Source: Phoronis australis | Taxonomy: Eukaryota > Animalia > Phoronida | Reading direction: 5' to 3' | NCBI GenBank assembly: GCA_002633005.1 | Contig: NMRA01000476.1 | Location: 274,592-338,591, forward strand | Length of the DNA: 64,000 nt | Shown here: in pieces, positions 3,301 through 52,995 of the stretch | Layout of the letters: each line of letters starts with the position of its first letter | How positions within the stretch are numbered: the stretch's first letter is position 1 | Notes under the pieces: model-generated | Database searches by the model: none | The model's input: the letters and a program-made list of their open reading frames with translations, nothing else | What the model was told of the DNA's origin: nothing | Made by a program: the position numbers and the translations under genes

Positions 3301-3540
3301 AACTCAAATTGCCTCTAGGAGGTACACTTGTTAGAGATCCGACTAAAATTCGTTCATGCCGTCCCATTCATAAAAGCAACGTATAGTAGCGTCACAATTT
3401 CATGAACATACATCGGAGGTTTTTGGAGATAGAGCAGCGTACGACAGAAGATGGAGGCTGGACACTCGGATGCCGGACGAATTGCCTAGCGGACGGACAG
3501 GCATGACGGCGTAATGTAAATAATTATGTGAGCGCATAAC
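400..3540 (+). mobile_element. Degenerate mosaic of HINE-like monomers with two tandem 3' ends (interrupted about 790-1430)
   Basis: Monomers homologous to 22666-24214 (e.g. TTGCCACTAGGGGGTG at ~2648), GGAC-type microsatellite remnants, terminal GGGCGCAT (~3297) and GAGCGCAT (~3538). Boundaries approximate. Confidence 0.6.
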
Positions 3541-10465: not shown

Positions 10466-10505
<40 letters not shown>

Positions 10506-12475: not shown

Positions 12476-12481
12476 TTTATT
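12476..12481 (-). terminator. Putative polyadenylation signal (AATAAA on minus strand) of prosaposin module B
   Basis: TTTATT on + strand about 660 nt downstream of the module B stop (13143). Confidence 0.5.
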
Positions 12482-13142
12482 CTTTAGACCAAATCATGTA
12501 CAAACATATACACATACTTTCATTCAATGTTCTTCAGTTTCAGTAAAATTCATTACGTGGCTTCTCATTTTTTCACTTAATGTCCAAAACATTAGCATTG
12601 TGGAGTCGGAAGTGCCTAACCAAGCAATTGACATCCTAACAATACATTCAATGGTTTCCCCTTTCCTGATTAATACAAACATTACACAATATAAAATGGT
12701 TCATACATTATGAAATCACACCTAGTGATACAAAGATGTAAAATTACGTCACATTCTTTTAGTAACTTAAAACAAAATGGCCGACTTCACAAACTACAGG
12801 GTGTTCCAAAAACGTACCCTCAAAATTTTGAACACTAAAATAAATTCTTAATATTTTTTGAAAAGAAAAGAATTGCGAACTGACTTGTATAGTTAACAAG
12901 ATCACTTTTTAAGAAGACCATCCGACAGGTTTAAATTTACAGACTTATGGATTCGTTTTATAGGTCAACCTGTGTTACTAAAATCATGACAACTTTATAA
13001 TGGTTAAAATTTCTGGTTTCTGAGGCTTTCATGGAAGTCAACAGAGATTATAAAAAACAACATCAGATCTTAAATCTAAACAGAACAGAAATATGAAATA
13101 GCAGAGCAGAATATCAACATGAGGTGTAACAGGATGCACAGC

Positions 13143-16100
13143 TCAATTCCACACGTGGTTTCTGCAGTGTTGTTCAGCCTGAAAACAAAATAACACTACT
13201 TACAACACTGTTGAAACTTTAAATCTGATAAAGTATCTCCAACTTAAAAACATCTTCACAATCAGAATAGTTCCAAACTTGCCAACATCTCCCACAATAA
13301 AAACAGTTTAAACAGGTACTTCTTTGACAACATTTTTTATTTTCACCAAGAGCTTTTTACCTATTTTATCAATATGGGTCAGCAGAAGGATTGTGCATTT
13401 CATTGCAAGATTCAACGCATTCACAAAAAATTTGTGTACTTGCATTTGTTCTACTGTGCTTACCTGACATTTCTTTGCATTTTCCAAACTAGCACACCAG
13501 TAGCGCGGACCATACATGCACTTAGAACCCTTTCCAAGCATGGCTTTCTGAGAATGCTGCATGGAGTTGATCCTAATCCACCCTTTAGGCTGCCCACACA
13601 GCTCAATCATCTACAGGAAAAAAACACAAGTCATGAGTAGAGATTAGTTTATTTGATAATGCACATAACTACAATAATAAATACAGTAATAGGTAAAAGT
13701 TACTAAGAAATTAAAAAATAATGACAAAAAGTTTAAAACGTATATCCATGGTGGTACATACACAAATTAAAAAAATTAAAGAAAACAAAATAATATAGGG
13801 AATAATTGATATATTATAAATAATTATACAGATTATGTTCATGCCTATCACAAAATCAAGACATTTATTTCCCTATGGTTGCAACAACTTGAGTCTCACC
13901 AAACTCGTTCATGGCTATGTTAGAGACACAAACGCTCAATGAAGATTCTGATTTTCAGCCACAGTAAGCAAAGTTCTAAGCAAAAATTCTATAAGTCACC
14001 TTCCTGGTCAATTATTTTCTACTCGTGGTGTTTTGAGTTAAGATGTAACATTTGGATTTGCAAATTTATTGTGACTATGACAAGAGTGAAAGCCAAAGAA
14101 CATACTGTTCCTTTTCTAATGAACACTCATTTTAATACTATGACATACCGAACACAGCTGATTGGATTTCATATCCAGGAATGCTTTCATGATGACGCTG
14201 TAGTAGGTATCGACGTAGTTACTGCAGGTGCTCTGCATGTTGCTGGGTATGAAGGAGCACACCTTCAGAAGTAAGTCCTCCAGTTCACGCTGAGTGGCCG
14301 GCTTGCCTCTCATCATAGACTGCATGTTGACCACAAAGATGTTACAGTAGTCGCAGCTATATGTTTTGGCCTTCACTGAAAGAGAAAAGAAACAATATCA
14401 ATTCAGGATTGACTGAATTAAGCCAATAAACAAAAACTTTCCTGAGGCTGCAATGTTTTGGCATTAAGTGAAGAAGAAAAAGGAACAAGTTGCAACTTGA
14501 TTCAGCACAGAAGTCGAGTTAATGGTGCTATAGGCTGGCTGTGAATGATGCACCTAAACAGGCACCTCCCACTGAACATCTTATAACTCAGAGATTTGAT
14601 ATGACTAAAGATTAAGGGCTGTTCCAGTAAAATCCGTGTGGGAGGGGGGGGACGGCAGTAGAAATAAAAATTCATGGGTGGTGGTCTTCAGAAAAAAACT
14701 CAAATTATGGGTGGTCGTTCCTGTAATAAGTGATGCATTAAAAATGGGTGGTATTTTTTGACCTGTTAATGTTGATAGGTTGGTTACTTCAGCCCTAAAA
14801 ACTCAAAAATAAATGCAATTGTCCAGATACAAAAAAGCCCATATTGCCAGTGAACAGAGTGCAATATGTTCACTAAGCCATTAATCAAGTCATGGGCAAC
14901 TCGATTTGAGCCAACTGTTTGTCTGCAGTCCTATTGAATTGAAAAGTTATGCAACACTGAACTGGTGTTAACACATATAAGAAAATTGATGATTTTTAAA
15001 TAAAAAGTATGAGGAGTAAGATAAACAAGTTCCAATATTCACTTGACATAGAAGTATAGAAGAGTTCGTNGCAACTTGATTCAGCACAGAAGTCGAGTTA
15101 ATGGTGCTATAGGCTGGCTGTGAATGATGCGCCTAAACAGGCACCTCCCACTGAACATCTTATAACTCAGAGATTTGATATGACTAAAGATTATAAAAAA
15201 GGAAGGGGCAATAATTTTGTAAAAAGTTTGGCAAAAAACAGGAAAGGAAAAAATCATTATTGTTACTGTAGTAGCTGCCGATGCCATGACTTGAGAAGTG
15301 AGATTCTATTTTGAGTCATGGTTTAAATACCAACTTCTTTCCAACTTGTCATTCGTTGGATATCAGCCTGCACTTTAAAGTAAATTTAGGCACAGAATGT
15401 AACTACTACATTACACATTTCAAATCACATTGAAGGCACTAAAAAGAGATTAGCACACCAGGTAATATTTATTTTAACAAGTTCTTAGTGACGGCATGTC
15501 AAAAATGTAGATTATTTTGTAATTCTAGCACCATTTTTTGCCAATTGAAAACTTTAATTAAATATAAGCAAGTTCTTGATAATCAATTTTAGTACTAGAT
15601 TCTTACTTTTAAAACATCTAACTTTTACGTGCAGTGGGTGTTAGGTTTACACTAAAACTGTTATTCCAATACCAGAAGCAACAAAATTGTAAGGACTACG
15701 CACAAACTCACCTGCTTTGATGGCTACAGCATTACAGAGACCCAGAGTTCGACAGATAAGCTTGGGCTGGAGATCCTGGGATAGTACCTGCAGGATGGCC
15801 TTACCATACCGACTAATGATCTGAGAGCACTCATCCTTGAGGCTGGACGGCACAAGAGTGCACACTTTTTGAAGACCCGTCATGATCTCCGCCTACATTG
15901 AGGTCATAAGGTCAAGATTAGAAATTAATGGTATCCAACAGACACATGTGTAAAAAATATAACATTTCTGTGCCATTGCCCAATCAGATTTCAAATACAA
16001 TTGAGAAATTCATGCACCCATGGTCTACACAAACATGGAAAAATTTACCTTCAAGCAAAATGTTGGGACCGGCATCAGCAGAAAAAGATTTTTCAGAGTG

Positions 16101-19100
16101 AATATTATTGTTCTTAAGAATAGCCAATTTTTGTAAGCAGGCTGGGGAATAAAAGCTGGACAGTCTGGTTATAAGAACTGGAAAACACACTGGAAAAAAA
16201 TCCATCTTGTATGGCCAATAGATGAATGTGAACTCTGTGCCTGTTACAACATTGCAGCTTACAAAAACACTCAAAGTTATCTCTACACAATCACAAACAT
16301 GAATGCACCAATATGATACTTACCTGGGTAGCCTTCTGCCCCAAGTATTTCTCCAGTTCACTCATGGCCAGCTCACACACATCACATTGCAGAGAGGTCC
16401 TCACACTGGGCAGCTGAATGGTGGCTAAACAGAAGAAATAAAATTCTTACACGAAACTGCCTGCATATAACTAATTTTGTGCAAAATAAAGACACCTACC
16501 AGGTGACCTGTGACAGGCGAGGCATTATAGCAGTAAAAACTCTTTTGGAAATAGTTTTAGGAGATGTCTGATGCTCAGTTAACAACACTCAAAGTTTCAC
16601 ATCATTTTTTTAAACAATAAGACAATGGAGCTAGGGAATTTTTATTTTTGTCTACTGAACATACGCCTCATTTTTCCACACAAAGACAAGCAGTTATTCC
16701 CTCCCATCATATCCTTCATATATGTTTGCATTAAATAAACATTGTATTGACTATTTTCAACACACCCAGAGTTATGACTCACCATTACACAGACCAATAG
16801 CAGTGCAAATGGCAGCTGGCTTCACATCCTTGACCAATAGCTTCAGGATCTCATCAGCATACTTATCTATCACATTCTGGCACTCAGATGCTACAGTAGC
16901 TGGTAGCAGTTTACACACTTTATCAAGGGCACTCTTGATTTCTTCCTAAAGAGTGAGGAAAACGTCTCGATTTATAAGACCAAATGCTCCTCCCAAAATT
17001 CCCAAAAACTTCACTTTCAACAAGTAATACTCTGATATACGCCAACTTTCAATCATGGAAAAAACACTAAGAGTTCAAATCAGCGAGATTTGAAGTGAAA
17101 TTTAAATATACTAGTCATAGAACACAGAGATTCATCAAGTTTAAGATAACTTTGAGTCTAAGGCTTATTTCCAAGCTCAGTGTGGCATTCTGCAAACCAA
17201 ATTTATTGTGAGAAAAGCAAGATCTGGAAAATCACACAAGTGAAAAGCAAGTGTTTTGTGAGTACGCTCAGAAGTTTATTAGCCGATCCTAGCAAAATGA
17301 CAGTGTTTGAAGAAATTGGTCAGTGAGTTTGGAATGTTAAATTGTGGGATTTTAAAAATATGAGCACTGCCCCAGAAATTGCTTTCGCATTATATCCAGG
17401 TTCTCATTCACTCCCTAACATAGATTTACTAGTAAGACCGAGCTTAGAGGAGTAGAAGACACCTTTGTGCTATGCTCGATTGTCTGCCAGTAAAGCCAGG
17501 ATTTGAACGCACGTCTCTGAAACTAGAGCTCAAACCACTGAGCCACACCACCTTCTCTAAATGTGAGATTGAATTTATTGTTTCGGTCAAGATTTTTCAA
17601 CGCAAGTGTAAGTTAAAGTTGCGGAGTGTACGGAACTCAGCACTGTTTATACTTGGAGTGTACGGAACTCAGCACTGTTTATACTTGCCTCTGTAGCATT
17701 CTTCGTCAACATGGACTCCAGCTGGGACACCATGTACTCACACATGACACACTGAACAGGAGTAGCGACTTTGAGGGAGGAGACTTTAACCGCGCTTGAT
17801 GTGGCTGAAATCAAAAGAAAGTTCACACTGAACAGCTGTGGATGATAAGCAGCATATGTTATTTTAGAAAAGGCTGTCTGTGATGGGATTCAAATTAGAA
17901 CTTTCTGATATTATGCTGTACGCACTGTTCTCCAAAACACTAGAAGGAATATTTTTAAAATTATCTACTTTAGCATGAGGGCTATCAAGAAATAGGACTT
18001 AAATGATTTTCATGAAAAACTTTTAAAATCCATACAACAAAAATGAAATGATAATTTAGGGAAAGCGTAACAGCATTTTTGAGACCTAACCTTCAACAGT
18101 TTCATCAAATAGAATTGGATCTCGTTATTGACACCATTTTTATGCTGTCAATGTACATTTCATTTTGACACAGTCACATGGCCCAATTCTACAGGATTTC
18201 TATTTTCAGAAAAATAATGTATATTTTACGGAGCTAAAATCTAACAGTTTTGTACATACTTGGCCAATTACGCAGACCTGTTCACTCAGTTCCTACATAT
18301 CCATATGGGTCGAATGATAATTATGTAAACTAAGACTACACAAAGAGAAAGTTACCAGCTTTTCTGCTGGCCAGTCAAGGAAGTGGGACATGTATAAAGC
18401 AAAAGTATGGAATGTTCCTCTCAACAGAGTCGCTGGGTTTTCAAAAACAAAAACATATTCAAAGACTTGTTGAAGAGGGAGGGGCTTAATGTGTTCTACC
18501 TACTAAATGAATGTACATATAAAAACGCCTCGACACTGCCAAAATGATTAACTGTCCAACAGCAGACACAGAAGTCTTCAATTAAAGTCTTACCATTACA
18601 CAAGCCTAGTTTGGTACACACTACCGAAGGCTTCAGCTCTTCCACAAGAAGTTTTACGATGTCATCTGCATACTGTTCAACAAGAGATACACACTCCGTA
18701 GAGACAGTAGATGGGAGATAGCTGCACACAGCTTCAAGGGCCTTTTTGATATCCTCCTGTTGAAATATTTAGTAGAATATTCCAATTATGTAATAAGTAA
18801 TATTTTAATACAAATGACATGTCAAATACATCAACTGCTGTCAAATAAACTCAATAGGGATGGGGGGGCTAATAGGGGGAGGGGGGCTAATTAAATGTGA
18901 ACAACGTGTATGCTGCTTTACTGAATGGCAGGAATCGTCCTATTTTTCTAAACTTTAACTATGGTCTCCTTCACCCTGTGGTGACATGGTTTCCAGGATG
19001 ATACCAGTTTAAGTCAGAAATGCACTCGGATATAATACTTTGCATGTATTATTTTTGGAAGCCAATACATTTTAAGCACATAATAAAAAGAAAACTAACA

Positions 19101-22100
19101 AGTATCCATTTTTGTTGTAACTTTAATATATTACAGGTGTGATTTTGTAGAGATTCATCACTTCACATGCAGTCCGCTGAATGCATTTATTGTCCTGTTA
19201 AAACAAACACGCACAAATCAATGTGATGTTCACTGATGTCAAGCATTATTCTTGTTCAATCACGAACAATCATTTAAATACACGAAGGAGTAGGTATATT
19301 CAAAAGTCATCAATGTCTGACCATCAAATAAGAGACCATTTCATACAGCATGCAGTCTCCAATACCTCTGTAGCATTAGAAGACAACAGGGACTCCATAT
19401 AGTTCATCATATATTCACAAATGGCACAGGTGGGAGAGTCACGGGCCGCTACCATTACTGGAACTTTGCCTGATACTCCTATAAAGTGTAAGTAGGTTAG
19501 AGGTTAAAAAACATCAAATACCTTCAGTCATTTCTGAGATGTGTCCCAAAGTTAGCCAAATTCAGACATTTTCCAGTGTTACTTACAACATTAGCACCAC
19601 ACTCCCCAATGACTGTCAGTCCTAGACAAGATTTAAATGGTACAGTTGAGGAGCTAATTCATACCAGTATCAATTCTGTGTACTGAGATACGAAAAACAT
19701 TGGAGAATAGACAGCACATAACAGGCATAAAAGGATCAATTTTTTGAAAGGAAATAGAAAATCTAATACTAGTACAAGCGATTGAGGAGGCAGTGTGGCC
19801 TAGTGTGATAGGTGCCTACTTTCTTTACTCAAGGTTGTGGCTTCCCGTCCCACTGGGCCATACGGATAGACCCTTGAGTCAGGTTTCTAGCTCCTCAGTT
19901 CTGTTTTAACAATATAAAGCACAAAAATGATGTCAGGTGATCCGTGCAATGGGCACACATGCACGTCCTGCCCACATCTGGTACATCTGTTCAGTTAGCA
20001 GTGATGACAAACCAGTAATGAGGGCAGATGCCAGTTACTGGAGCTCACAGCTTGTAAACAAACAGGAGTATATAAAGCAAAAGACAAGTTTGAAAACCAT
20101 GAATATTACACCAAAGGAAATTGGTCCCACTGACTGACACAATAACGAGTTCGACACAGTGAGTGAGAATCACTTAGATGAGTGGATGAAGCAACTCCAT
20201 TATTGAGAGATTTTGATTAGTATGAAGACGAAGAGCTCAGGTGTCATCGACAATATTCAGATGAATGCATTTTGCCTGGTACGTATTGAACAACATGAGG
20301 TTGCTATACAGTCACCACTAATTATCTGACTGCATCGTTTTTCTTGAGTGAGAGATCACGTGACCAATTTTATGCTCACATTTTAGAGCTAATTAAACAT
20401 TATAATGCAGTCTGAATGTGATTAAGTCATAAACTTTGACATATTGTGACATCAAAGAGCATGCAAATACTAGTTTAATGAACTCCAAATAGCTGCTATA
20501 AAATCGGTCTTACAACATTCCCTACCAAGACAGGATTCTACTATTTTCAAAACCATATAAGGACATCAAAACCATAAGTGACTTAAAAAACGCTTCAAAA
20601 TATTTTGGAGATTGACCAACCCTAAAATTGCAAATTTGAAAACGGCGCATGAATGCGTTGCCTGTGACTTGAGTAGCTGGCTCATTCCGAAACAATTTGG
20701 GATCAGACAAGGGTCTGTTTTTAAATCTTAAAAATGCTTTGGTTAAGAGTTTAACATTGACAACTAAGTAACCAGCAGCAAAATACCTACTTCACTGAAA
20801 ATTGGTTCCAATTTGTACTAAGATGGAAAATGATTCATGGGTTTAGAAAAGTGGAGATTTTTTGCTGATAAAGCTAAAAATAGATTAAATTAGAATTCAT
20901 GTGAGGCAGCTAATAGAGGTGGCGCTTTCTAGGATGTTCTACCACTTGTTCCACTATTACTGACATATTGTAAACCACAGAAGACAGTCATAGCTATAAA
21001 AATTCCAATAAAACATACATGTATTGAAAGTTTCTTATGATTGTTGCCTAACTGATTATACATTACGAAGCTGAGGAACAAAACGTTAAAAAATCTTGGC
21101 AACTTACGAGCTGAGCAAAGACCAAGCGCAGTGCAGACAACCTGCGGGCTGACTTCACGCACCAGAAGTGCAATGACAGCAGGTCCATAGTTTTTGACAA
21201 AGTCTTCGCATTCTTTTGATATCGTCGATGGCAACAGGCTGCACACCTTATCAAGAGCAGCTATTATCTCTGTCTGCAAAAGCAAGAGTTCGTTATTCAA
21301 AACAACAGGTCAGATAAACTGTATGTATAAGCAAAATCGCAAATAAACAGCAGTTTCACTGGATTTCATAAAAAGCAACTGGAAATGTTAAACATTTGAT
21401 AAGAAAACACTGCAATACATACTACAAGAATAGTTTTTTAAGTTTAACTCCAATCCCTCCCTCTTACAATATGAGGAAAAAGTTCGTCTAGTATACCTCT
21501 GTTGAATTCTTGCCAACAAGTTTCTCTAGTTCGTCTGCTACAAATTCACAAACACTGCATTCAACACTGCCTTGGACCTTTGGTGTCTTCAAAATCTTTA
21601 CAAGTTGGCCTCCAACTGCCACAGGTTTTGAATCTGTTACCACAGCAGAACACAAACCGATGGCTTTGCAGATAGCTGGCGGGTCCTAAACAAAATTACG
21701 CAAAGTTCGAATTTGAATACAGTTCTTATTGTGACGAGCTACAAGTTCATAATGTCCTGGGTAATAATTGCAAATGTGACCTTTTATATCCGTCAACCGA
21801 ATTTGAATAGATAACAAACAATAAGTGGTCATTAGTGAACACTGATAAAAATTGTATAAAAATATTTTAAAATCATGATTTCTTGCTCATATCACACTAC
21901 ATATTTTACTTGAATGTAGGACATTTTCTAGTTCCGAGAGAACAAGCACACATGTTTTGTTCATCAAATTCGAATTCTTGATGATAAATCAAAATTGAAC
22001 AAAAGCATATTCTCTCATCTGTAAAGCACTTGCACTAAGAAGTTGACAAAAACATTATAACAATTCTGGATACCATGTGAATGTCACTCGCTGTATTCTC

Positions 22101-25100
22101 TCTCTGTTTCCCATATTTACAATCTAAAGGAGCTCAACAACCTGTGGAGAAGCCTTGCAATGATAACCATATTACATGAAGCAAACCAATCACTCAAATA
22201 TTTTCTTCCCAGTGTGAAATTTTTCCATGGCCTTAAAAAATTTCAGATTAGCCAAATTTTAGACAGGATTAAAATACACTGACAACAAAGACAAAATGCT
22301 TTAATGGCATTAAATACGAAGTTATTATCTCTACAAATATTTTGCCTACAATTACATAAATCCTAACACAAAATCATACAGCAGCCAATTTACACTTTTT
22401 CATTGCACAAACTAAAAAAGAAATCACTTACAATGCCATAAACCAGTAACTCAAATATGTGCTTGCCTTCAGTCGTAATCAGGTCGTTACACTGAAAGTA
22501 CAGAAAAGTAAGTTGGCGATAATGGTTGTTATTTTACAAAACAGTTGGTAATGGTGGAAAACCCCAAAATGAATATATAATAGAGATATATTTCAGCTTG
22601 ATTTTCAAGAATGCTCCATAAGTGAGCATGTAAACAACACGTGTGCACCGAAAATTTCAAGAATCACAAGAGCAATGCAGAGCGTTGAAATGCGCCCACA
22701 ATTGCAACGTATACGGTATCCTTCTAGGGTTGTTTATTGGTACCATAAAGTGGCCAGTAGAGGGCATATATGTAGTATGTTGTACTTTGCAAAATGGAAA
22801 GGCATGGTCATTGTCTCCTCAATAGGCTAGGTTTCAAAATGTGAGTGATCTTCATAATACAAGCACATCCTATGCATCAGTTGCTTAAAGCACCACAGAA
22901 ACATAGAATTAAAAACAAATTTACCAACATACGAGATTAGCACAGCATTAGAATGCCAGAAACAAATTTCTACTTGGAACTTTTCCTTCACAGTCACGAA
23001 GTAACACAAAGTATACACCTGAAGACCTATGAAAATACAGAGGTCAATGTAAAATACTAAAATTGCCACTAGAGGCAAATACTAAAATTGCCACTAGAGG
23101 CATACCGGTAATCAGAATCATCCTAAAGTCGTCATCGTCCGTTGTCAACATCACATAAATACACTTGCTAAATTTAGTAAAGATCCTGCAAACGGTTTGG
23201 GAGATACAGCCATGGGCGCAAAAAAACAAAACTGCCACTAGGAGGCGCCACAGTAGTCCAAATCGTCTGAAAATCATTGTCAGCTGTCTTCCTTATAGTA
23301 AGCACATACACGCCAATTTTCACAATCATCCTTTGAGCGGTTTGGTTGATAGAGGGGTGGACGCAAAAATACAGACTCGAAAACAGTAAAAATGGCCACT
23401 AGGTGGCGCAAACTACGTCGAATCCATCTGAAAACAGTAGGATAGCGTCATCTCACTAATAGGTGCCTACATACCAAATTTCATGAAAATCCGTTCAATA
23501 CTTTTGAAGATACAAAGGTAAGCGTAAAAAACTAAAATTGCCACTAGGGGGCACACCGGTAGTCGGATCCGACCAAAAGTCGTCATCTTCCGTTGTTAAC
23601 ATCATATAAATATACTTACACAATTTGTAAAGATCCTGCGAACGGTTTAGGAGATACAGCCATAGGCGCAAAAAAACAAAACTGCCACTAGGAGGCGCCA
23701 CAGTAGTCGAAATCGTCGGAAAATCATCGTCAACCATCCTCTACATAGTAAGCATATACATGCCAATTTTCACAATCATCCTTTGAGCGGTTTGGTTGAT
23801 AGAGGGGTGGACGCACAAAAACACACTCGAAAACACTAAAAATGGCCACTAGGTGGCGCAAACTATGTCGAATTCATCTGAAAACGGGAGGATAGCGTCA
23901 TCTCACTAATAGGTGCCTACATACCAAATTTCATGAAAATCCGATCAGGACTTTTGAAGATACAAAGGTAAGCGTAAAAATGTAAAATTGCCACTAGGGG
24001 GCACACCGGTAGTCGGATCCGTCCGAACGTTCGCACATGCCGTCCCATTCATGAATGGAACATATGTGCAAAATTTCATGAACATATGTCAAAGGGATTT
24101 GGAGATAGAGCAGCGGACGCCGGACGCCAGACGGACGCCGCCCGTACGGACGGACGGACGGACGGACGGAGATGACGGCATAATGCGTCCACATATAAAT
24201 ATGTGGGCGCATAATAATCAATTTTGCAATGTATGAAAGTTTGCCTCAATAATAGCCAGAACAGTAGTAAATTTCGGAAATATACACAGTATGTATAAAC
24301 AAAACTAAGACGTTAAAAAGAAAAAATAATTTAACTGCCACAGAAATTTAAAGCGAACCAGTATATCTATATCAAATAACAACATTTGAAAACTTTAACT
24401 TTACACAAAAACCTTCACAATGTTGCAACATATGTAGCAAACTGTTACTCACTGCAGTAGCTAGAGAGCCAAGTTTGGAACACAGGTTATCTTCAAGAAA
24501 CTTCTCAACTTCAGCCTAGGACAAGGATGACAATAAAACTTACAAAAGTAATAATAAAGAAAATGAAAGGTATAACTCTAGTATGTCCTTTAGACCAACT
24601 GCTTTAAAGTGCAGGACAACCCATAAAACAATCAGACAAAGTACCATTTCTGTGTAATGATGACAGGTTTCGATAACAATGAAAACGTCTGGCTATGACT
24701 CATCATGACGGTTAAATTCTACAGGAAGACTCACATAGTATCATGGCAACTGCATGGAAATGTGGGATTGGACATTACTGATCTCTAAAGGATGAGTGGG
24801 CAATTTCCCTTTTGTTTAAACAATAAAAGTGTTCTTTTCAAAAAGTCAAACACATCCCAATACGTCACATGTTGAAGATGTACCTCCAGCCAAGTCTCCG
24901 ATAGTAGCACTAATCTTGCAGTTGCTTAACTTTCCACCTGACCTACACATTTATATTGCCAGTTAGTAAGGCGATAGTCTGATTATCCCCACTCATGACA
25001 GGAAATTATGGTCATTTTGTCTCATGATTTTGACATGTACCATACAAATATATGGCACGAAGCGATTGGATGAAGATTACACTTCGTAATTCAAATACCA

Positions 25101-25348
25101 CTTGATCAAGAGATTTGGATAGAAATTTCATTGACAGAACTTTTGATTGCTCAAAACCAAAGCATGTGATGCCAAGATCTTCACCTCTAAGCAATAAAAA
25201 ATCCCAAGAATCGGGAACAATATACTACAACATAAATATGAGGTTGCAAAAATACACTTACTTGTGTGGTATTCAAAGAGATACTAATTTTGAGGGCAGC
25301 AAGAACTTCTTGACACAATGAACAAAGTGCACTACTCTTGACATTGGG
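13143..25348 (-). CDS. PSAP: Prosaposin 3' module B: 6 SapB + C-terminal SapA + stop (14 exons, 1812 nt); with the shared block gives an 867-aa, 8-SapB protein
   Basis: Exons 25262-25348, 24453-24515, 22432-22491, 21497-21685, 21108-21273, 19366-19478, 18594-18756, 17689-17804 (GC donor), 16783-16945, 16324-16424, 15712-15892, 14149-14375, 13464-13610, 13143-13178 (AEQHCRNHVWN-stop). Open frame throughout; begins at a phase-0 acceptor with no ATG or signal peptide of its own. Confidence 0.88.
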
Positions 25349-31300: not shown

Positions 31301-34300
31301 TGACAATTCAAGACGATGAACCACTCCCTTCAGAAGTTATTCATTTCCTCATCACTGATCAAGTTGGGCAAAGTTTGATTGCCGTATTTCTATTTTTTCA
31401 AAATATCCTGACATTTCAGGACAAATGTCCAGGACCAAGAGAAAACAACGAATTCTCTGAGCTCAGTTCCAACTTTCAACATCCCACCACACCAAAGTGT
31501 AAATCTGACCACGAGGATCTCAAAGAATTTATCAAAAACATTGTAAAAAACAACTGTTTTAGATATCCATCCAAATTACAAGAGTAGAAGGCAGGTGGCA
31601 CTGCACATTATCAAACACACAATCTATCGCCATCTAGCAATGAAAAATGTTTTGTTATCACTTTCCATTCAAATTAACACAGCAAACTTACATGTGCGAG
31701 GAAGGGTGGAGTTGCACAATTGAATGAATGTGCACACTTTCTTTGGGTCTATTCTGGCAACCAGTGCAGAAATTATATTAGGAGCATACTGGCTGACAAG
31801 TTGTTTGCATGCGTCTGTAAGGGTTGAAGGCAACTGACTGCAGACTTGATCCAGGGCATCAATAATTTCTTGCTAGAATTAATATTATGAACCAATTAAA
31901 TATGACACCATCACAATGCACAAATGCCATAAGCAGGATAACACTGAAACTGTAAGGGTACATACATCACAGAGTCCTCATTACACAATGTTAGCAATGC
32001 CATGTGACCACCAAATTTGTCCCGTTTTATTAAAACCAGTCCAGAATAGTTTGCACCGCTGGTAGCATTAATACAAGCACAGAAAGCTTTGACAATGAAT
32101 ACTGTAATGTTGTAAAATATTACTGACAAAAAATGCTGACATCATTTGTTGATAAGTAATAACACGAAAATCAATTTCTTTGAAAAGAAACTATTTTCCA
32201 CAAATATTTCTGATGTCTTTGTACTTAAAAGCAACAGCAAACTACATTACGTCTCAAAATGCCACAAAAGTAAATACAAGAGCAACGCGGAGCGTTGAAA
32301 TGTGCCCACAAATGCACCGCAAATGATGTTGATTTCTATCATGAAAATGGCCACTACATGGCGAAAAATATGTTGAATCTATCCGAAAATGGGAACATGT
32401 CATAGCTTCTCTAATAGAAAGCCATTTACAAAATTTCATAAAAATCCATCAAGGAATTTCACAGAAACAGAAGAAAACGGAAAAAAATGAAATTGCCACT
32501 AGGGGGCAGAGCGTTCGTCATATCAGTCTGAAAGTCGTCTGTTGTCAACTTCATATAAAAACATTTGGTAAATTTAATAAAGATCCTGCAGTGGGTTTAG
32601 GAGATAGAACTCTGGGCGTAAAAAGAAAAAAACTGCCACCAGGAAACCCCACAGTAGTCAAAGTCATTGGAAAATCATCGTCAACTGTCCTCTTCACACT
32701 AACAACATATGTGCCAATTTTCACAATAATCCTTAGATTGGTTTGGTTGACAGAGGGGCGCACATCCAAAAAGACTCTAAAACAGTACAAATGGACACTA
32801 GGTGGGGCAAAATAATACAAATCCATTCGAAAAGTAAAGAATAGTGTCACTTCACTAATTGATGCTTATGTGCCAAATTTCATAAAAATCAGTTGAGGAC
32901 CTTTGAAGATAGAAAGGCAAACGTAAAAAATAAATTGCCACTGGAAGGCACACCGGTAGTCCAATCCGTCCGAAAGCCGTCATTGTTCGTCAACTTCATA
33001 TAAATACAATTGCTAAATTTAGTAAAGATCCTGCAGAGCATTTAGGAGATACAGCCATAGGTGCATAAACAAACAAAATTGCCACTAGGAGGTGCCACAG
33101 AAGTCGAAGTTGTAGGAAAATCATTGTCAGCCGTCCTCCTCATAGTGAGAACCTTTATGCCAATTTTCATAATCATTCTTAGAGTGGTTTGGTTGATAGA
33201 GGAGCGGACAGCAGAAAACAATAAAAGTGATTACTAGCTGGTGCAAAATACCTTGAATCCACCTCAAAATGATAGGTTGGCGTCATCTCTCTGATAGATG
33301 CCTACATTCCAAATTTTATGAAATTCCGTTGAGGATCTTCGAAGATACAAAGGTAAGAGCAAAAAGCTAGAATTGCCACTAGGGGGCACACCAGTATTCG
33401 GATATGTCCGAAATTGGTCATCAGCTGTTGCCAGCTTCATAGGAACACATCTGCCAAATGTCATTCAGATCCTGTGAGGGGTTTAGAAGATACAGCTGTG
33501 GACGCCGGACACCGGATGACGGACGCCAAGACAGAGACGACGGCAATATGCACACACATATTCATATGAGCATAAAATCATTTAGAAAAAGTCCAAAAAA
33601 AATCAAAGTTAATAAATAAAAATTAGCAACAGTGCATCTTCCTCTCGACAAAATAATTAAATTCTGATCAGTCCTTGGTGTGGTGAGATACTCTATTTAA
33701 AAAAGCCAACAGTTTTCAAAGAGGACACTGCATGTGGCTTTAATGCAAACAAGTCTAGAAAATCACATAAATCATACCTCAGTAGCATTGGAAGAAAGCT
33801 TATCATCTAGAGTCTTGACAACAAATTCACACAAAGCACACTGTGGAGTGTCCTTCACTCTTCTACTTTTGGAGACTGAAAAATTTCAACAAAGTCAACT
33901 TTCATGCAACTTACATTCAAAGTAATCACTAACAGAGTTATCATGCACAAGATTCATGCAAAATCAAAAGTTACTTTCACAATTCATAACACAACAATGC
34001 CTTTGCTTTGAAATAGAACTGCCAGTAAAATTGAGAATTTTACAAAAATGCGAGAACAAAATTTCATTCATTGTTTTGATGACCCAAACCCGAGTTTGAC
34101 ACATAAGATTTCTATGGCTGATAACGGCAGTGTTAGTGTGACTGGCATGTCTGTATGTGACAAAAAGAAAGTAAAAATAAACATTAGCAACTGATCAACA
34201 GCCAATTGAAACTGATGACAGGAATCACAATTTATAGATTCCGTGCCAAGGATGCTTTTGATTGTGCTGTTCAAGGACTTTTATTAAAGTAGGTTGAAGT

Positions 34301-37300
34301 TATAGTTTAGTATAAAGTACATAGCTTACCTGATGCAAAACCATCTTGGGTACACAACTGGAGAGATGTACACACCTTCTTAGGATCTAGACCATTGGCT
34401 AAAGTGACAATGATGGTTGGACCATAAGTGTCAATCAACTCTTTGCATACACTCGACACAGTTGAGGGCAANTAAAAATTAGCAACAGTGCATCTTCCTC
34501 TCGACAAAATAATTAAATTCTGATCAGTCCTTGGTGTTATATGTGTGGTGAGATACTCTATTTAAGCCAACAGTTTTCAAAGAGGACACTGCATGTGGCT
34601 TTAATGCAAACAAGTCTAGAAAATCATATAAATCATACCTCAGTAGCATTGGAAGAAAGCTTATCATCTAGAGTCTTGACAACAAATTCACACAAAGCAC
34701 ACTGTGGAGTGTCCTTCACTCTTCTACTTTTGGGGACTGAAAAATTTCAACAAAGTCAACTTTCATGCAACTTACATTCAAAGTAATCACTAACAGAGTT
34801 ATCATGCACAAGATTCATGCAAAATCAAAAGTTACTTTCACAATTCATAACACAACAATGCCTTTGCTTTGAAATAGAACTGCCAGTAAAATTGAGAATT
34901 TTACAAAAATGCGAGAACAAAATTTCATTCATTGTTTTGATGACCCAAACCCGAGTTTGACACATAAGATTTCTATGGCTGATAACGGCAGTGTTAGTGT
35001 GACTGGCATGTCTGTATGTGACAAAAAGAAAGTAAAAATAAACATTAGCAACTGATCAACAGCCAATTGAAACTGATGACAGGAATCACAATTTATAGAT
35101 TCCGTGCCAAGGATGCTTTTGATTGTGCTGTTCAAGGACTTTTATTAAAGTAGGTTGAAGTTATAGTTTAGTATAAAGTACATAGCTTACCTGATGCAAA
35201 ACCATCTTGGGTACACAACTGGAGAGATGTACACACCTTCTTAGGATCTAGACCATTGGCTAAAGTGACAATGATGGTTGGACCATAAGTGTCAATCAAC
35301 TCTTTGCATACACTCGACACAGTTGAGGGCAACAGGGTGCAAACCTGTTCAACAGCATTGATAATTTCTTGCTGTAAAAAATAGAATTCTGTTTTATATC
35401 TCAGACATGCACTTACAACTCTAATATTTTACTTATCTCATGTGCTTCTCTTCAACAACGTCATTAAAACTTAAAGTGAAAAACAAAGAGTAGAACAGAA
35501 AATTCAAGACTAAAGAAAAAAATGGGCACTGAACATGCAACAGCAGGTTAACAAGTTAACCTCAAATAAAACATACCTGAGTGGCATTGGAGGCAAGCGT
35601 CTTATCCAACTGCGACATCACAAATTCACAGATGAGACACTGAGGGGTATTCTTGACATCTGTTTTCATAGATGTGCGAACTAACTTCACCACAGCTGGT
35701 CTGATATTGAAGGCAGGCATCATACCTCTCAGGCCTTCAGAACACAGACCAATGGCTTTGCACACAGTAGGAGGATCCTGTGGGAATTGAATCAAGTTGA
35801 CAACATCAGACCACCTTGTTGAACAGCGTACAGTTAAGTCATGCAGTTTGTAAAACAGAAGCCAAACAGGCAGATTCATCACTCGAACAGCAACCAGACA
35901 GTTAAAAACTCTACAAGAATTACAAATTTGTCCTTGTCAAACCTGAAATCATTATCCAAATCACTGAACCTGTCCGTTACATCAAACAAGACTCAAAAGC
36001 AAAAACATATATGTCAATTCAATAAAGTCACAACTGAGAACAAAGTTTTCAGTTCAAGTGGATTTGTATTGTATCAATCATGAATTGGTGGCAGTGCAAA
36101 TAACGTGGAAATTAAACGCTGGGCACTCAGGACCACCGTGAATAACTGTGTAATGATTATCTGAAAAGACTTAAACAATGTTCTTCACTTACTATAAAAC
36201 CTGTTTTAATGTTTAAGTGTGAAACTTGATTAACTCAAACCTGGCTTATCACTAAGTGCACGAAAGAACTCTTTAATATCAATTGCTCACATGTCTACAT
36301 CAACACAAGATGGCGCCACTTACCAGCTCGTTAGCCAAAAGCTCAAACAAAACAGGACCAAACTGCTTAACACCATCCTTGCACTGTAATGTCAATATTT
36401 ACATTTTACACAAAAATTATAATGAAACAAAACTACACTTTCATTACTTAAGATGTAGACGGACGAAATATAACTGCAGCCATACTTGACCAATGTATGG
36501 TTATGGTTTTTCTTTTTTTGAAATACTGTATTCGCAGTAATAACCGCCCATGCCCCTATAGGCGCCCCCCCACGTGTTTTCAGACTTTGCTGAAATAAGC
36601 GCCCAGTCCGTGAACGTGTAAATGCGAACAATGACGTACCTACAGTCCTAAAACTCGGCTACAGTAACGTCTTCAATTTATCAAAAAAAAATTTTTGCAC
36701 GGGTCTTCTAGACCACCAGCGGCACTGCTACGTTTGTATTTAGCCGTGACTATACACTTCAAAGTAACGCAGCGCTTCAAAAAGAATGCAACAACGTTGC
36801 TACTCTCGCGACGACTGTGTCCCACTATGGTCTGACCTTTCAGTACAGACACATCGACGGTCTCATGAATAAAAATAACTCAGTGTTAAACGCACGTGGC
36901 CAGGAAGCGCGCGCTACATATATGAACCTGTCATCAAAGACATTAGTTGGGAACTATCCATTCATGAAACAGGTAGCATAGCATCGGTAAGAAATGAATA
37001 TTGGCACTAATTTCCGACAATTTCTAATACCATAAAACAAGTTTGCATTATTTTTGAGATGGATTGTTTGATTAACCATAATTGGTGTTTTTAAGCCGAA
37101 TATCTGATAAAATGACAACTGACAGTGAATACTTACACACCCTTACACCGAAAAATAACTGTCAGATAGTTACGTACACATCCAGCTACACAGCGACTAA
37201 TATGGGCATTACCGAGACAAATGTCAAACGTTTTTAGCACGAGACCGGCAAGTGCTGAATGAAACACGCTCTGGTTTAGGCCTACTGCTTGTGCAAATTT

Positions 37301-40300
37301 CTTTAAACACAATGTACATCTAGCTCGTTAGATTGCGTGGCTCTGGCCAAAAGACGGTCTCTGCTTTGGCAAATGAACTGTGGTGACACGCACACGCTCG
37401 CTTACTCACAAACGTAGACAAACTTAAAAACAAACGTCATGTGACAGCAACATGGGTGTTTGTCCAGACATTTTTCTCGCCGTGTTGCCGATCATACATG
37501 TAGATGGCACGATGTTGCACAGATTTGTACTTAAACCTGCCGTTAATCCAGACTCCACGGGAACTTAAAAAAAATCTTAGGGACGCTACTTAGAAAACTT
37601 AATAAAGATTTCAGGTAATTTGCTTCTTGAGTCGAAACTATTTTCATTCAGTCATTGACGTCGCCATATCGAAGACGGCGATTTCAAGGCAGTCAGTCGG
37701 CGAGTTTTCGCCCTGGAATTTCAGCACAATTTTCTGTAAAATGAACGTAATGTAGCAGCAAAGTTTGATAGCAATGCACCACAGTTTTGTTGAAAGTCTT
37801 TCATAGATTACAGATACGTCACAGAGTGTAAATTTGATGAATCTTAGCTTCCCGTTTTGGAGACCGGGTTTCAACCACCCTGGGTTATAATAAGCGCCCC
37901 CCTGAACCGAACTTTTTTAAGCGCCCTGGGCGGTTATTACACAATCACTCAAAATGTGCCAATATATGCCATGTGAAACGTTATCGGATTACCTGGACTA
38001 TAAGGCCATGGGCTTACAGTAAAGCAGAGATTTATACTCAGTATAATGCCATGGCCTTATAGTCATTTGCATTCCGGCCTGAGCAAAAGTGTTTTTGTTG
38101 TATTTGTTACATATTAATGTTGAATGCTTTTTGAAAAACAATATTTTATGACCTTGGGCATTACTTGGTATTTTGGTGATGACTGACTGGCAAAAAATGA
38201 CAACCGGTACTGTATCCCAAATCATGGTACGACCTTATTCTTGCATATATGGCCTTGGCCTTTTATTCTAGATCATTTGCATTTGAGGTGTTCTCAACAG
38301 CATATTAACATTTAAGGCAATGGCTTTATACGGTATTGCAAGTAATAGGGTATGCTCTTTAGATAAAGAGATGTATTCAGGCAGTTGCAGTATTTGTCTG
38401 TGAGTGCTGAATTTTGTCCTACTACAGATGAGTCTATAGTCACATTTTGCAGTGATTTTTGTTTGTTACAAACAAATGTGTGCTCTTAACAAAGCTACAA
38501 CTGTAGAAGTGTTCTTAAATACAAAATACCACAAAATGAATGACATAAAATGTCAAGTGGACTTTAAAACAGGTTTCTGAATACTAACAAACCCAACTTA
38601 CCGATGCTGCCAAAGAACCCAGCCTTTCACATAACTCTTTGTCAAGAAATTCTTCAACCTCTTCCTAAACAAATACAAAATTTGCACTCTTAATGATCAG
38701 GGAGGGAAAGCAATATGTCCTTAACAGTTTCTTTTAAGTATCCAGTAGATATGGCCTGCAGACATTATTATAATTTTTAATTTCTTTCAAATAACGTATT
38801 GCTTACTAAAATGCATTGGAGCAGCATTTTTCCATTACTGTGTTAAAATTATAGTTAAATCATACAATAGAACAAAATGTTTATTCAAACTGCCAGCCAA
38901 AAAGCCAAAAATAGTTTTAACAGGTTCAGACACATAACAACTGTGAAAAAGACTGTCAATAAACGTAGCACAACTGTATGCTGATATAAAGCACACTCAA
39001 ATGTAATGTCATTTCCTGCTCACAGAACCACGCTCGATAGTAAAAGTAGTCATTCTATCACACATCACACAACCACTGCAAAACAAAGCATTTGATGTTT
39101 TAAAGGTTTTACACAACCCACATCAGTTTATGTAGCAATGTGGATGAACATCAAGCAAGACCTCTGAGTCCAAAGTATACAGTAGTGCAGTGTTCAACGT
39201 AGCAAGCAACAATTACAATTCTATCACGTGAAACAGTGTTCAGTGAGACAGTACAGTGCACATAGCAAAGTGAAAGGGTGCACACTAAAACATTGCAAAG
39301 TGAATATATTGCAAAGCGAAATACTGCAAAGTGAAATATTACCAGTAGTGAAATGGGCAAAAGTTTGGGAAAAATGCAAGCAGCACAGGATTGCAAAAAT
39401 AAATAAACAGCATGCAGAGGTCTCATAAATAAAAGATCTCAATCAAGTAGCCTTACAGATGTCCTCAGACTTAAAGTGCTGACAAAATATTTTAGTAATG
39501 GATAAAAACTCCAAAATGTCTCCAAATAAATGGAATTGTAAACATTCCATTTCCTACTATTGGTATACTTTGCCAATAACTCTGTGCATCACTTTTTTAC
39601 GAGGCGAAAAAAGGTAAAAGGTGTCACCTGGTTGACACCTAGGCAGAAATTCAATACTAAAGAACGGCCCAAATGTCATATTCCATGTCCTTTTACAAAT
39701 TAAAAAGAAAAATAGGAGGTTAAAATGAAAACGCAAGAAACATAAAAAGACCAGAAAATAAACAAGAAACATGCATTCCCACTTTTTGATTCTAAGGATT
39801 TCGTAGTTAGCAAGATAGCTTGTTAGTACAAAATCATCCCTCCATTCCAAGGATTTAGTAGTTAGCAAGATAGCTTGTTAGTACATCATTCTTCCATTCT
39901 AAGGAATTAGTAGTTAGCAAGATAGCTTGTTAGTACAAAATCATCCTTCCATTCCTCATTCTTACCTTGCTAAGGTGAAAAGACGTCGAGGATCCTCAGC
40001 CAAAATCGGAGTAATTCACGTCAAATGAAACCAGTTCGCAGTCCAAAATCTCACAATCAACGCTTGCATTAGATATTGTGCAAATTATTCACATATTACA
40101 TACTTTGCAAAATCAGCAAAGGGCAGACAATATGACTGGATGTGGAGTTTAGCACCTTACTTGACACTACTTGAGCATTGCTATAAAGTAGCAAATCCTG
40201 CAACGGCAAACTGGCGTGGGGAACAAGCAGAGTGGCTTCAGTGAAAGTGTGTGTTCCATGTGCATTTCAGGTGTGGCTAATTAACCAAGTAAGAACCAGG

Positions 40301-43300
40301 GTTCAATTATGGGCAGTGCTTGGCGGGGAACTTTTATCGGTTACCTGTGTCTTGTTGGCTCTGACGAGATTTTGGGCAATACCCATTGCCTCTTTACAAA
40401 TGTCACAAACAGCGCTATCGGACACCTGACACAATGAGTTTGGATGATAACATGCAGAAAGGTCCAAAGATGAATGCTATCTAAAAATTATACAGGTCTT
40501 TGAACATAAGGTGTAATTTTGATATCTTGAACTTATCTGGTCCTCTACATAGAACAGTCAAAAGACTAATGGAGTTACTATAGCTAAGACATGTGAAATA
40601 ATCATTGAGTAATCTTGACTGTGCAAAAAATGCACATATAGTTCTTTCCAATATTAGTATTTAGACACTACTTCCTACCTTCTGAGCAGCTTTGTACAGT
40701 TTTGTCTTGGTCAGTTTCATAGCGATGAGAATGGATCGATCACCACCACAGAATCCCATGGCTTGGCAGATCTTACTAGGATCCTGAAGAAACAAGGACA
40801 GCTTAAGTTAGAGATGTAACATGTAATGTGATCATGCAGTTTAATGGCAAGTTAATGAGAACAACATTACAAGCAACAGAGTGTGTCATAAGCATAAAAC
40901 TACTTTATGCTCCTGTGCATTCCGCAAGGACTCCTTGGCACAAATGTGTACAATCAAATCTCATAAAACATTCAAGTGCACTGTTCACATGTTTGCTAAT
41001 GGTACAAGAAGAGCACAGTCTTGGTAAAAATTGAAATGTAACTCCAACCGATTAAACTGTACATGTAAGAGATACCCAGCAGATACCACCCAGACAAGTA
41101 TAGCTAATTTTGACAATGAACGTTTCTGTCTGAACGAAATCAGGATACACAACATATACGTCTCTTGATCAAACAAGGAAGAGGCCCACAAACATGGATA
41201 ACACTGAACTGATTCAATATTTCACCAACAATAGCTGCAGTTGTTTGACGTACCACTTCAGATGAGATAAGTTGCACAACAGCGTCTGCGTAGTTTTCCA
41301 CCAACTGCTTGCACTCAGGCTCTAAGTTTCCCAGTTGAGAGCAGACGTTCTGTTCAATGAGGCTGATGATTTGTTGCTACAAACAGAGCAGTCACAAAAG
41401 GATTTACTGACTGTAACCTCAAGAATCAAACTACAGGCTAGTGAGAAAAAGGGTTACCAAAACAATGAAAACCATGCACTAGTTTGCAATGAAAACCAAT
41501 TGAACACAAGACATTATAGTGTGACACCAACAAATTCATATCAAAAGCACTTTTTACAGAAAATCTTTCCTTTTAAATAGATAGAATTTTTTATTCATCA
41601 AATAACCACAGTTCAACTATCTTGCATGAAAAGGCGGATTCATTCAACTTGGTGACGAATAAAAGCAAAAATCATGAACTACTGAGACATCAACATTCAA
41701 TAGTTCACATTATGTCTTGATGATTAAATAATAAACCACACGCTGTCACCTTGCATCAATCGGAACACATCGGGCATTTTCCTAGCCCCAAATTAAATTA
41801 TCCCCAGGCGTATTTAACAACTGTGCATTTACAAACTTCAATCAGATCAGAAAGTTATGTGACTGTCAAAATGGAGATTGCAGCCAAATGCACCTTGAAA
41901 AACATGAAATAACAGTACATCAGGAGGCAGACCAAATATTGAGAATGACATTGTGTACGTCTTTTGAAATCTGTTGAGTGGATAGCAATGACAAGTTAGT
42001 TTTTTTATCAAATTCCTTGGCTATTCTGATTGAAGTTCACACATATGCAAATATGAAACACTTCCAAGGTATAATTTCAAACTATGAAAATCCCCAAAGT
42101 GTTCTAGATACTTGTAATGTTATCAATAGTACCTTAGTGGAGTTGCTTGTGATCATGGCCTTCACATCACCAAAGAACTTGGTGCAATCAGCACACACCG
42201 TTGCATTACCCAGTTTCTACAAGCAATTTAACAAATGATGAGAAACAAAAAGCACATTCTCAATTACAAAACAGCCTTCCATTGACAGTCAGTCACACAA
42301 GGAAGTATACATATCCACTCAAGTGCAAGTATCATTTTCTGGCAAAAAAATAGAAAAGTTATCCTCTCCATTATTATCTTGTTAAATTTATCCACACATA
42401 TCAATAGCTAGAATACAACAATTAACACACTTCCCAGAGAAGAGCTCAAAGGTTGACAGTCTCATCACTTTTCACATATTATTTAAAGGTTGATAGTCTC
42501 ATCACTGTTCACTTATTATTTAAAGGTTGATAGTTTCATCACTTTTCATATATTATTTAAAGGTTGATAGTTTCATCACAGTTCAAATATTATTTAAAGG
42601 TTGATAGTTTCATCACTTTTCACATATTATTTAAAGGTTGATAGTTTCATCACTTTTCATATATTATTTAAAGGTTGATAGTTTCATCACTGTTCAAATA
42701 TTATTTAAAGGTTGATAGTTTCATCACTTTTCACATATTATTTAAAGGTTGATAGTTTCATCACTTTTCATATATTATTTAAAGGTTGATAGTTTCATCA
42801 CTGTTCACATATTATTTAAAGGTTGATAGTCTCATCACTTTTCAACCCACACACCATTGGGATCCTCTTCTTGGCCACTTGCTTGTCGGGATGATGCACA
42901 GTATCTGAGAAACCAGACTTGCAAATACCCATAGCCTCACACACGGCCACAGGGTCCTGCAAAAATCCAGTTACTTAATAAGCAAACAGCTTTCATTCAA
43001 CACAAATACAATGAAATGCAACTCATAGACAAGGAAAACTACATACACATTCCATTTACATCTAATGCAATCATCTAGGTTTAATCAGAGAAACTCAAAC
43101 ATCAATGAAAGGTTGTTTCACAACATATGGCCATTTAAACACAAATGTTTTGAAAAGTTGAGAGTGACACATCAAAGTTGAGAGTGACACATCAAAGTTG
43201 AGAGTGGTACATCAAAATAAATCAGGTTCATGCTCTAAGTTTTATTTGTGTCCGCCAATTCCTAGGCTTAAGACTAAGAAAAATCTACTGTCATAGGTAA

Positions 43301-52453: not shown

Positions 52454-52995
52454 TGTAGTAATATCCGAGATTACCCGACCCGGGCATCGAACCAGCAACC
52501 CCATAAAAACCGGCAAGCGTGCTAACCGTTCAGCTAATAGGCAATTGCCCGTTAGCGAGTACCTAACAGAGGCTCATATATGATTCACCGGAAGCACATC
52601 TACAACATTCCTCCCTTTCCTACGGAACGGGCACGCCACCAGAAAGGTGGAACACCAGGATGTCTCCCATATGTAGGTCATCATCGTCCCTTCGTACTTT
52701 TACCACCACAACACACAGGTGAACACAAGGTAGTCTGACTCTCATACACAGGTCCTTGACTCCTGCAACCTTTCATGCGCGCCTTCCTCAGGTCCGCGGG
52801 TACTAGTTGGCAGTGCTTCATCGGTAGATCATTCGTTTGACAATTACGCCATTTGTAGTAATAGCGACACGGAGATAGAACCAGCAACCCCATAAAACCG
52901 GCAAGCATGCTAACCATTCAGCTAATAAGCAATTGCCCGTTGGCGAGTAGCTAACAGAGGCTCCTATATGATTCACCGGAAGCACATCTACAACA
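52454..52995 (-). mobile_element. TRIM (non-autonomous LTR retrotransposon in miniature), copy A
   Basis: TG...CA LTRs 52854-52995 (5') and 52454-52607 (3'), PBS-like TGGCGTAATTGTCA at 52838-52851, polypurine tract at 52608-52621, no ORF. Confidence 0.85.

Follow-up and report, generated by a model that had tools for sequence, protein, structure and literature searches.

The stretch of DNA analysed here (the window: 64,000 nucleotides, positions 274,592 to 338,591 of contig NMRA01000476.1, assembly GCA_002633005.1) comes from the phoronid Phoronis australis and carries a prosaposin gene on its minus strand. One set of 5' exons is followed by two complete 3' cassettes, referred to hereafter as A (proximal) and B (distal), each encoding a series of SapB domains and closing with a SapA domain and a stop codon. 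The evidence strongly favours a single gene in which the shared exons are spliced to cassette B across 15.3 kb, and likely also to cassette A, giving precursors of 867 and 763 residues, respectively.

Gene structure

The exon model was rebuilt from the minus strand, from position 52800 of the window down to 11001. The shared 5' part consists of nine minus-strand exons (51977-51938, 48715-48585, 48151-48071, 45802-45737, 45399-45340, 42956-42855, 42216-42133, 41376-41254 and 40783-40679), which encode 264 residues comprising a signal peptide, one SapA and two SapB domains, and which end in phase 0. The sole signal-peptide exon found from the sequence and a signal scan (51938..51977, minus strand) opens with the ATG at 51977 and has a phase-1 donor; the signal peptide is predicted from hydropathy, the first exon encoding 13 hydrophobic residues with an eight-residue window of 3.06. 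Shared exons 2-9 (40679..48715, minus strand) carry the N-terminal SapA, SapB1 and SapB2, the last of them (40783-40679) being the phase-0 point of branching, and a minus-strand intron of 253 nt (40426..40678) lies between this exon and cassette A.

Cassette A (28745..40425, minus strand) comprises 12 exons encoding five SapB domains, a C-terminal SapA domain and a stop (499 residues), as modelled from the sequence and five RNA joints, while cassette B (13143..25348, minus strand) comprises 14 exons encoding six SapB domains, a C-terminal SapA domain and a stop (603 residues), as modelled from the sequence and from RNA joints at its 5' end. Both open in phase 0, at the same point ahead of a SapB domain. 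The exon sizes of A (81/63/60/201/181/98/181/101/181/227/93/33) and of B (87/63/60/189/166/113/163/116/163/101/181/227/147/36) follow one common phase pattern, with an extra two-exon unit in B. All 34 splice acceptors are AG and 32 of the 33 donors are GT, the remaining donor being the GC of the B exon 17804-17689; the GC-AG intron at 17689-17688 is read from the sequence only.

An earlier reading of the same letters (the original prediction) had proposed a single signal-peptide exon and one N-terminal SapA, two intact modules with five and six SapB domains, each ending in SapA and a stop, exon-for-exon homology between them, precursors of 763 and 867 residues, and a module B that begins at a phase-0 acceptor with no signal exon upstream. 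The rebuilt model agrees with all of these, the lengths included, and adds the two-exon unit of B to the homology. A second set of N-terminal exons between A and B was not found by tblastn of the shared part, and a scan for an ATG, a hydrophobic stretch and a donor, which recovered the true signal exon, returned nothing in 27880-25349.

The coding sequence of the shared SapB1 is divided among four exons (81/66/60/...), in the manner of the first domains of A (81/63/60) and B (87/63/60), as seen when the region 48151-42855 is compared with 40425-35577 and 25348-21497. Judged by exon layout, this common four-exon split is apparently the trace of an older internal duplication.

Transcripts of the two cassettes

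Four public RNA runs were mapped to 22400-42399, namely X1, taken from one study as contigs, and X2, X3 and X4, taken from another study as raw reads; joint counts, and the presence and absence of joints, refer to the best 15 of 389 joints. First mates of X2-X4 lie on the plus strand over exons, which corresponds to minus-strand RNA in a usual stranded library. The joint 40679->25348, a skip of 15,330 nt over 12 exons with canonical ends, occurs in all four runs, just as had been predicted from the sequence, with 89 reads in X2 (40 starts), 81 in X3 (40), 497 in X4 (92) and a contig depth of 710 in X1. The shared joints 42133->41376 (163, 109 and 450 reads in X2, X3 and X4) and 41254->40783 (125, 145 and 475) and the B joints 25262->24515 (127, 129 and 641) and 24453->22491 (124, 116 and 557) accompany it, and loose read ends match the shared exon 42956-42855 and the fourth B exon (21685). 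The X1 contig containing 40679->25348 is 3183 nt long, of which 2403 nt fall to the B side and 780 to the shared side; by its length only, it would fit the 1812-nt coding part of B, about 590 nt of untranslated region (UTR) and nearly all of the 792 shared coding letters. The 3' UTR of B (12476..13142, minus strand) has an AATAAA at 12481, and the length of X1 contig 5 is compatible with this end.

Cassette A is also spliced. Five joints of its 3' half (34639->31872, 31692->30868, 30150->29945, 29719->29297 and 29205->28777) are covered by 19-59 reads in X2, 9-67 in X3 and 3-10 in X4. Its 3' UTR (27885..28744, minus strand) has AATAAA at 28010, 27991 and 27890, and an X1 contig of cassette A, at a depth of 81, stops at 27888, next to the last of these, which bears out the predicted 3' end near 27.9 kb. 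Past the end of the cassette, sense depth drops to about 1-2 across 26402-27068.

Both cassettes are expressed, in amounts that differ between samples. Relative to the shared joints, B-bound reads amount to 0.62 in X2, 0.64 in X3 and 1.07 in X4, and the share of cassette A to 0.32, 0.33 and 0.01, as calculated from four of the five A joints, the remaining one matching at two places. The contrast of X2 and X3 with X4 is significant (p=1.5e-5), and three control joint pairs gave p=0.59, 0.49 and 0.19.

Some observations speak against the model of two alternative forms. Neither 40679->40425 nor the next five A joints are among the best 15 of 389 joints, so that we infer the proximal join, the 5' half of A being traced through depth, read arithmetic and geometry. 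In addition, the three raw-read runs come from one study, in which regulation and individual differences are not separable. The shared donor likely joins cassette A at 40425, since the abundance of A matches the shared reads that do not go to B and the two ends lie 253 nt apart in the same phase. Of the two isoforms first proposed, therefore, the B form is joined in RNA, and cassette A is spliced and ends near 27.9 kb, its join to the shared exons being the inferred part. There is no A-to-B hybrid mRNA among the best 15 of 389 joints, and the use of A and B would be mutually exclusive, through cis splicing.

Divergence of the cassettes and predicted products

Pfam confirmed SapA or SapB in all eight exons tested, with PF02199 (SapA) exceeding its cut-off both in the shared exon and at the close of each cassette. 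Each of the 13 SapB domains has six cysteines, all of which are kept in the 11 cassette domains, and 11 of the 13 have the conserved N-glycosylation site (N-x-S/T), which is absent from the last two domains of B. The two cassettes share 38% protein identity over 469 aligned positions, with a proportion of synonymous differences (pS) of 0.77, which is saturated, and of nonsynonymous differences (pN) of 0.37, over 346 codons. The strong divergence without stops or frameshifts described in the original prediction thus stands, and the substitution comparison suggested there has been carried out; saturated synonymous sites, 38% identity and the pN of 0.37 together indicate that the duplication is old and that both copies are under constraint. 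The cassettes would go back to an ancient event in which the 3' part of the gene was duplicated in tandem. The differences of X1 listed in the coding exons of A are silent in four of six cases.

The two precursors are predicted to share two saposins and to differ in the other six (B) or five (A). In cassette A, one domain is cationic (+3, two N-sites) and another strongly acidic (-10); the last two SapB domains of B are neutral, and the two cassettes end in separate C-terminal SapA regions. Human PSAP carries a lysosomal targeting sequence close to its C-terminus (PMC12864279). Since charge, N-sites and C-terminal tails differ, it is plausible that the isoforms differ in lipid partners or sorting. 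By analogy with vertebrate PSAP, each isoform would yield a distinct set of saposins in the lysosome, and, by analogy with PSAP and Drosophila Sap-r, these would be processed there into activators of lipid hydrolases. Two sets of saposins in one animal allow a comparison of lipid and hydrolase specificity.

Choice between cassettes A and B

For the B form to be made, the donor at 40679 must stay free during the transcription of A and its poly(A) site. The choice likely works, by analogy, as in C. elegans unc-60, where the first proximal intron decides, and the intron 40426-40678 is likely to be the regulated one, on the model of unc-60 intron 1A (PMC3469465). Use of the first A acceptor would commit splicing to A, and the transcript would end at the A poly(A) site near 27.9 kb; repression of this acceptor would leave the shared donor waiting while the polymerase reads through the A poly(A) site, and the donor would then join B. 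The likeliest repressor would be a protein of the RBFOX family acting on the UGCAUG at -31 and on sites at three later A acceptors, possibly assisted by a long-range duplex that draws the shared donor near the B acceptor.

The original prediction set a poor first acceptor of A against a strong one of B. Pyrimidine contents of 61% and 72% preserve the direction of this contrast, but the A acceptor is only mildly weak, 9 of the 34 acceptors of the gene being as weak or weaker; the means over each cassette are 66% for A and 75% for B (p=0.023). A candidate RBFOX motif, TGCATG (40451..40456, minus strand), lies 31 nt upstream of the first A acceptor, and the hexamer occurs within 100 nt of 4 of the 12 A acceptors, each of these four belonging to one of the first six exons, and of none of the 14 B acceptors (p=0.033 by Fisher's test and p=0.002 by a binomial test against the background). 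In the calcitonin gene, Fox proteins act through a UGCAUG at -34 to repress exon 4 (PMC2777236). From the distribution of this motif, repression of the first A acceptor by RBFOX may be entertained, tentatively.

A search for RNA-RNA pairing, also proposed in the original prediction, gave a candidate docking element in the intron before A (40530..40554, minus strand) and a candidate selector element (25447..25475, minus strand; prediction only) about 100-127 nt upstream of the first B acceptor. The predicted pairing of 40554-40530 with 25475-25447 (24 bp, -26.8 kcal/mol) persists on co-folding with the flanks and ranks first among 33 donor regions for the B acceptor, first among 25 acceptor regions for the intron preceding A and third among 77 windows; its energy is attained by 1 of 40 shuffles. 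A weaker candidate pairing (-15.4 kcal/mol) lies near the A acceptor. That the modelled duplex is functional is somewhat improbable, and the search as a whole is suggestive only.

Both elements have evidence that weakens their case. The TGCATG test was post hoc, three other hexamers having the same excess at A over B and five the reverse; of 565 donor-acceptor pairs, 16 (the one with the duplex among them) give a pairing at least as strong as the duplex, its selector core is partly held in local structure, and many 3' clusters lack docking-selector pairing (PMC6191721). The motif and the duplex are thus suggestive leads, at p about 0.03 each.

The furthest-reaching scheme, which we consider speculative and on the unlikely side, is that a tissue-specific RBFOX switch together with a 15-kb RNA bridge swaps two ancient saposin sets and sorting tails, one isoform serving general lysosomal lipid breakdown and the other, whose saposins include a cationic one and a very acidic one, a specialised role (e.g. 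secreted, digestive or antimicrobial). If it were true, a housekeeping gene would have reached subfunctionalisation at the level of paralogues without a second promoter, and 12 exons and a poly(A) site would be skipped as one unit. The locus is a natural test of how a donor stays unspliced, and hybrids are avoided, while the polymerase passes 12 well-formed exons and a poly(A) site that works, and the A share of about 33% versus 1%, together with two short candidate elements, makes this question of donor holding testable.

Alternative explanations

The architecture may be real and the difference in A and B between runs may instead reflect genotype (a cis variant at the A acceptor or poly(A) site) or a mixture of cells. 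The species is polymorphic, X1 differing at 14 of 889 UTR letters, and the three raw-read runs of the one study carry coded sample labels; nevertheless, the share of A changes about 30-fold (0.32 and 0.33 versus 0.01), X1, from the other study, has both cassettes (depth 81 versus 710), and both have remained intact through synonymous saturation, so that we regard this explanation as unlikely. There is a slender chance that A is transcribed apart, from its own start or with another leader, unjoined to the shared exons, in which case only B would be prosaposin. The position of 40679->40425 outside the best 15 of 389 joints would suit such a unit, but the room available is just 253 nt without a signal exon, A begins in the same phase and domain position as B, and the deficit of B-bound reads falls exactly in the runs in which A is abundant.

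Trans-splicing is known from Drosophila mod(mdg4) and lola. Were the shared exons to reach B by trans-splicing between separate pre-mRNAs, no donor would have to be held open over 12 exons and a poly(A) site, and junction reads cannot tell cis from trans; however, the shared exons and B are collinear on the same strand, a promoter-like first exon for B was not found, and low sense depth continues through the spacer in a read-through-like manner (25735-26401: 5.9 in X4 versus 1.8 and 1.6), although X4 is not higher in the bin after it. This is highly improbable, and equally little credence is given to two whole genes with near-identical 5' halves that were collapsed or misjoined in the assembly. 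The assembly does contain three haplotype-overlap artefacts, and whole-gene near-duplicates with consecutive accessions exist in Tubulanus. The original prediction had pointed to misassembly between 25.3 and 28.7 kb as a danger: the whole stretch between 34471 and 15071 is free of N, but the spacer holds a repeat near 27.1-27.2 kb. Against a misjoin, sense-strand reads continue through the spacer, and near-identical 5' halves beside 3' halves of 38% identity would need continuing gene conversion. A single gene with cis splicing of the shared exons to B, and likely to A, is the reading retained.

Comparison with known systems and homologues

In Drosophila PGRP-LC, CG42235 and pipe, several multi-exon 3' cassettes lie in tandem, and splicing connects one of them to the common 5' exon; in Drosophila 3' variable regions the choice is under docking-selector pairings and coupled to alternative polyadenylation (PMC6191721). 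Like pipe, with its span of 12-17 kb (PMC6191721), Phoronis prosaposin has tandem duplicated 3' cassettes. The fly cassettes have 2-4 exons (pipe) or 5-8 (CG42235) and number up to 10 (PMC6191721), whereas here there are two, with 12 and 14 exons and five or six whole domains apiece, and the pairing, unlike that in Drosophila, is a predicted one. In C. elegans unc-60A/B, one shared start serves two exon series, the whole transcript takes one course or the other according to whether the first proximal intron is repressed, and the distal form skips the entire proximal series (PMC3469465). The shared start and the skip recur in Phoronis, and repression of the first proximal intron would likely do so as well. 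The differences are of scale and regulator, since unc-60 has one shared exon, four-exon series and the regulators ASD-2 and SUP-12 (PMC3469465), while here 264 residues are shared, the skip covers 15.3 kb and 12 exons and the candidate is an RBFOX motif. In calcitonin/CGRP, the UGCAUG at -34 blocks the branch point and the proximal choice is a single terminal exon (PMC2777236), compared with a UGCAUG at -31 and a duplicated cassette in Phoronis. Cassettes A and B have more exons than the known 3'-cassette cases named here. In the IgM/IgD locus, read-through and alternative polyadenylation allow one 5' exon to be spliced to the first or the second of two constant regions, which are paralogous and multi-exon; this is an immune receptor locus of jawed vertebrates, whose protein is unrelated to prosaposin.

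Human PSAP (PMC12864279) and Drosophila Sap-r (PMC5319729), like the Phoronis gene, combine a signal peptide with tandem six-cysteine saposin domains. Sap-r has eight SapB domains and two transcripts, which differ by an in-frame truncation (PMC5319729); neither it nor PSAP is known to exchange its C-terminal tail or the last two-thirds of its sequence, unlike the Phoronis gene. Seven to eight SapB domains are ordinary for invertebrates, as Sap-r has eight and many homologues have more. Splicing of vertebrate PSAP involves a 9-nt exon.

No prosaposin with alternative 3' cassettes was found in the literature searched, the scope of which stopped short of the fly and human catalogues cited by PMC6191721. 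The layout is a known class, that of tandem multi-exon 3' cassettes, and is new for prosaposin as far as found; the original prediction knew of no such description for prosaposin, which stands, but the architecture itself is established (PMC6191721, PMC3469465). Gene predictors likely split or truncate such loci, and similar cases may therefore be missed. In this conserved lysosomal gene, partial duplication combined with alternative splicing takes the place of a duplicated whole gene, and the arrangement has persisted to synonymous saturation.

Among 218 homologues of at least 250 residues, no pair combined a near-identical N-terminus with a different C-terminus, a weak negative, as clustering at 50% or 90% may hide such pairs. 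Twelve flagged pairs were rejected, sharing at most 56% of N-terminal words and being mosquito or octopus orthologues; word-based searches with single exons found no homologue among two and eight candidates. HMMER returned distant relatives only, the best single alignments to three parts having about 39% identity and the top-scoring named relatives being marine invertebrates with less than 40%; an internal SapA, sought by sequence pattern, was absent from the 150 HMMER matches listed. A Tubulanus pair was rejected as a parallel case, being two genes 82% identical over residues 1-260 with differing N-termini. The two prosaposin-like genes of Tubulanus polymorphus have consecutive accessions, and one of them contains a three-fold internal repeat and no C-terminal SapA; the homologues also include saposin polyproteins of 2800-3200 residues that contain about 28-31 SapB domains. 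A tree from the first two cassette domains placed A and B together (74%), and one from the C-terminal block did not; a tree of the 13 domains had no starred branch, and the duplication is not dated by the trees.

Assembly quality and neighbouring features

Three Ns (15070, 34472 and 44419) each lie between direct duplicates of 94-98% identity (14489-15193, 126 bp; 33614-35332, 867 bp; 43104-45927, 1337 bp). These are likely, from their sequence, to be haplotype overlaps at scaffold joins with both haplotypes placed in tandem, and because of them three exons in full and a fourth in part appear as spurious copies, near 44296-43831 and 34470-33778. As the N at 34472 falls inside A, that cassette may hold a hidden extra repeat.

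A repeat family with internal tandem units (22660-24220, 32270-33610, about 28180-28550, 44420-44614 and 440-3540) recurs within introns of A and of B and, apparently, within the 3' UTR of A; RNA reads originating at other places in the genome cover it to great depth. A tandem array of about 37-bp units (42448-42845) lies in an intron directly after a shared exon. Rfam gave no matches. A GTPase P-loop exon (PF01926, E 7.5e-5) is present at 63018-63278 on the plus strand. NDK exons followed by a Dpy-30 exon (8600-10975, plus strand) lie tail to tail with the 3' end of cassette B, presumably in the arrangement of NME5-type genes.

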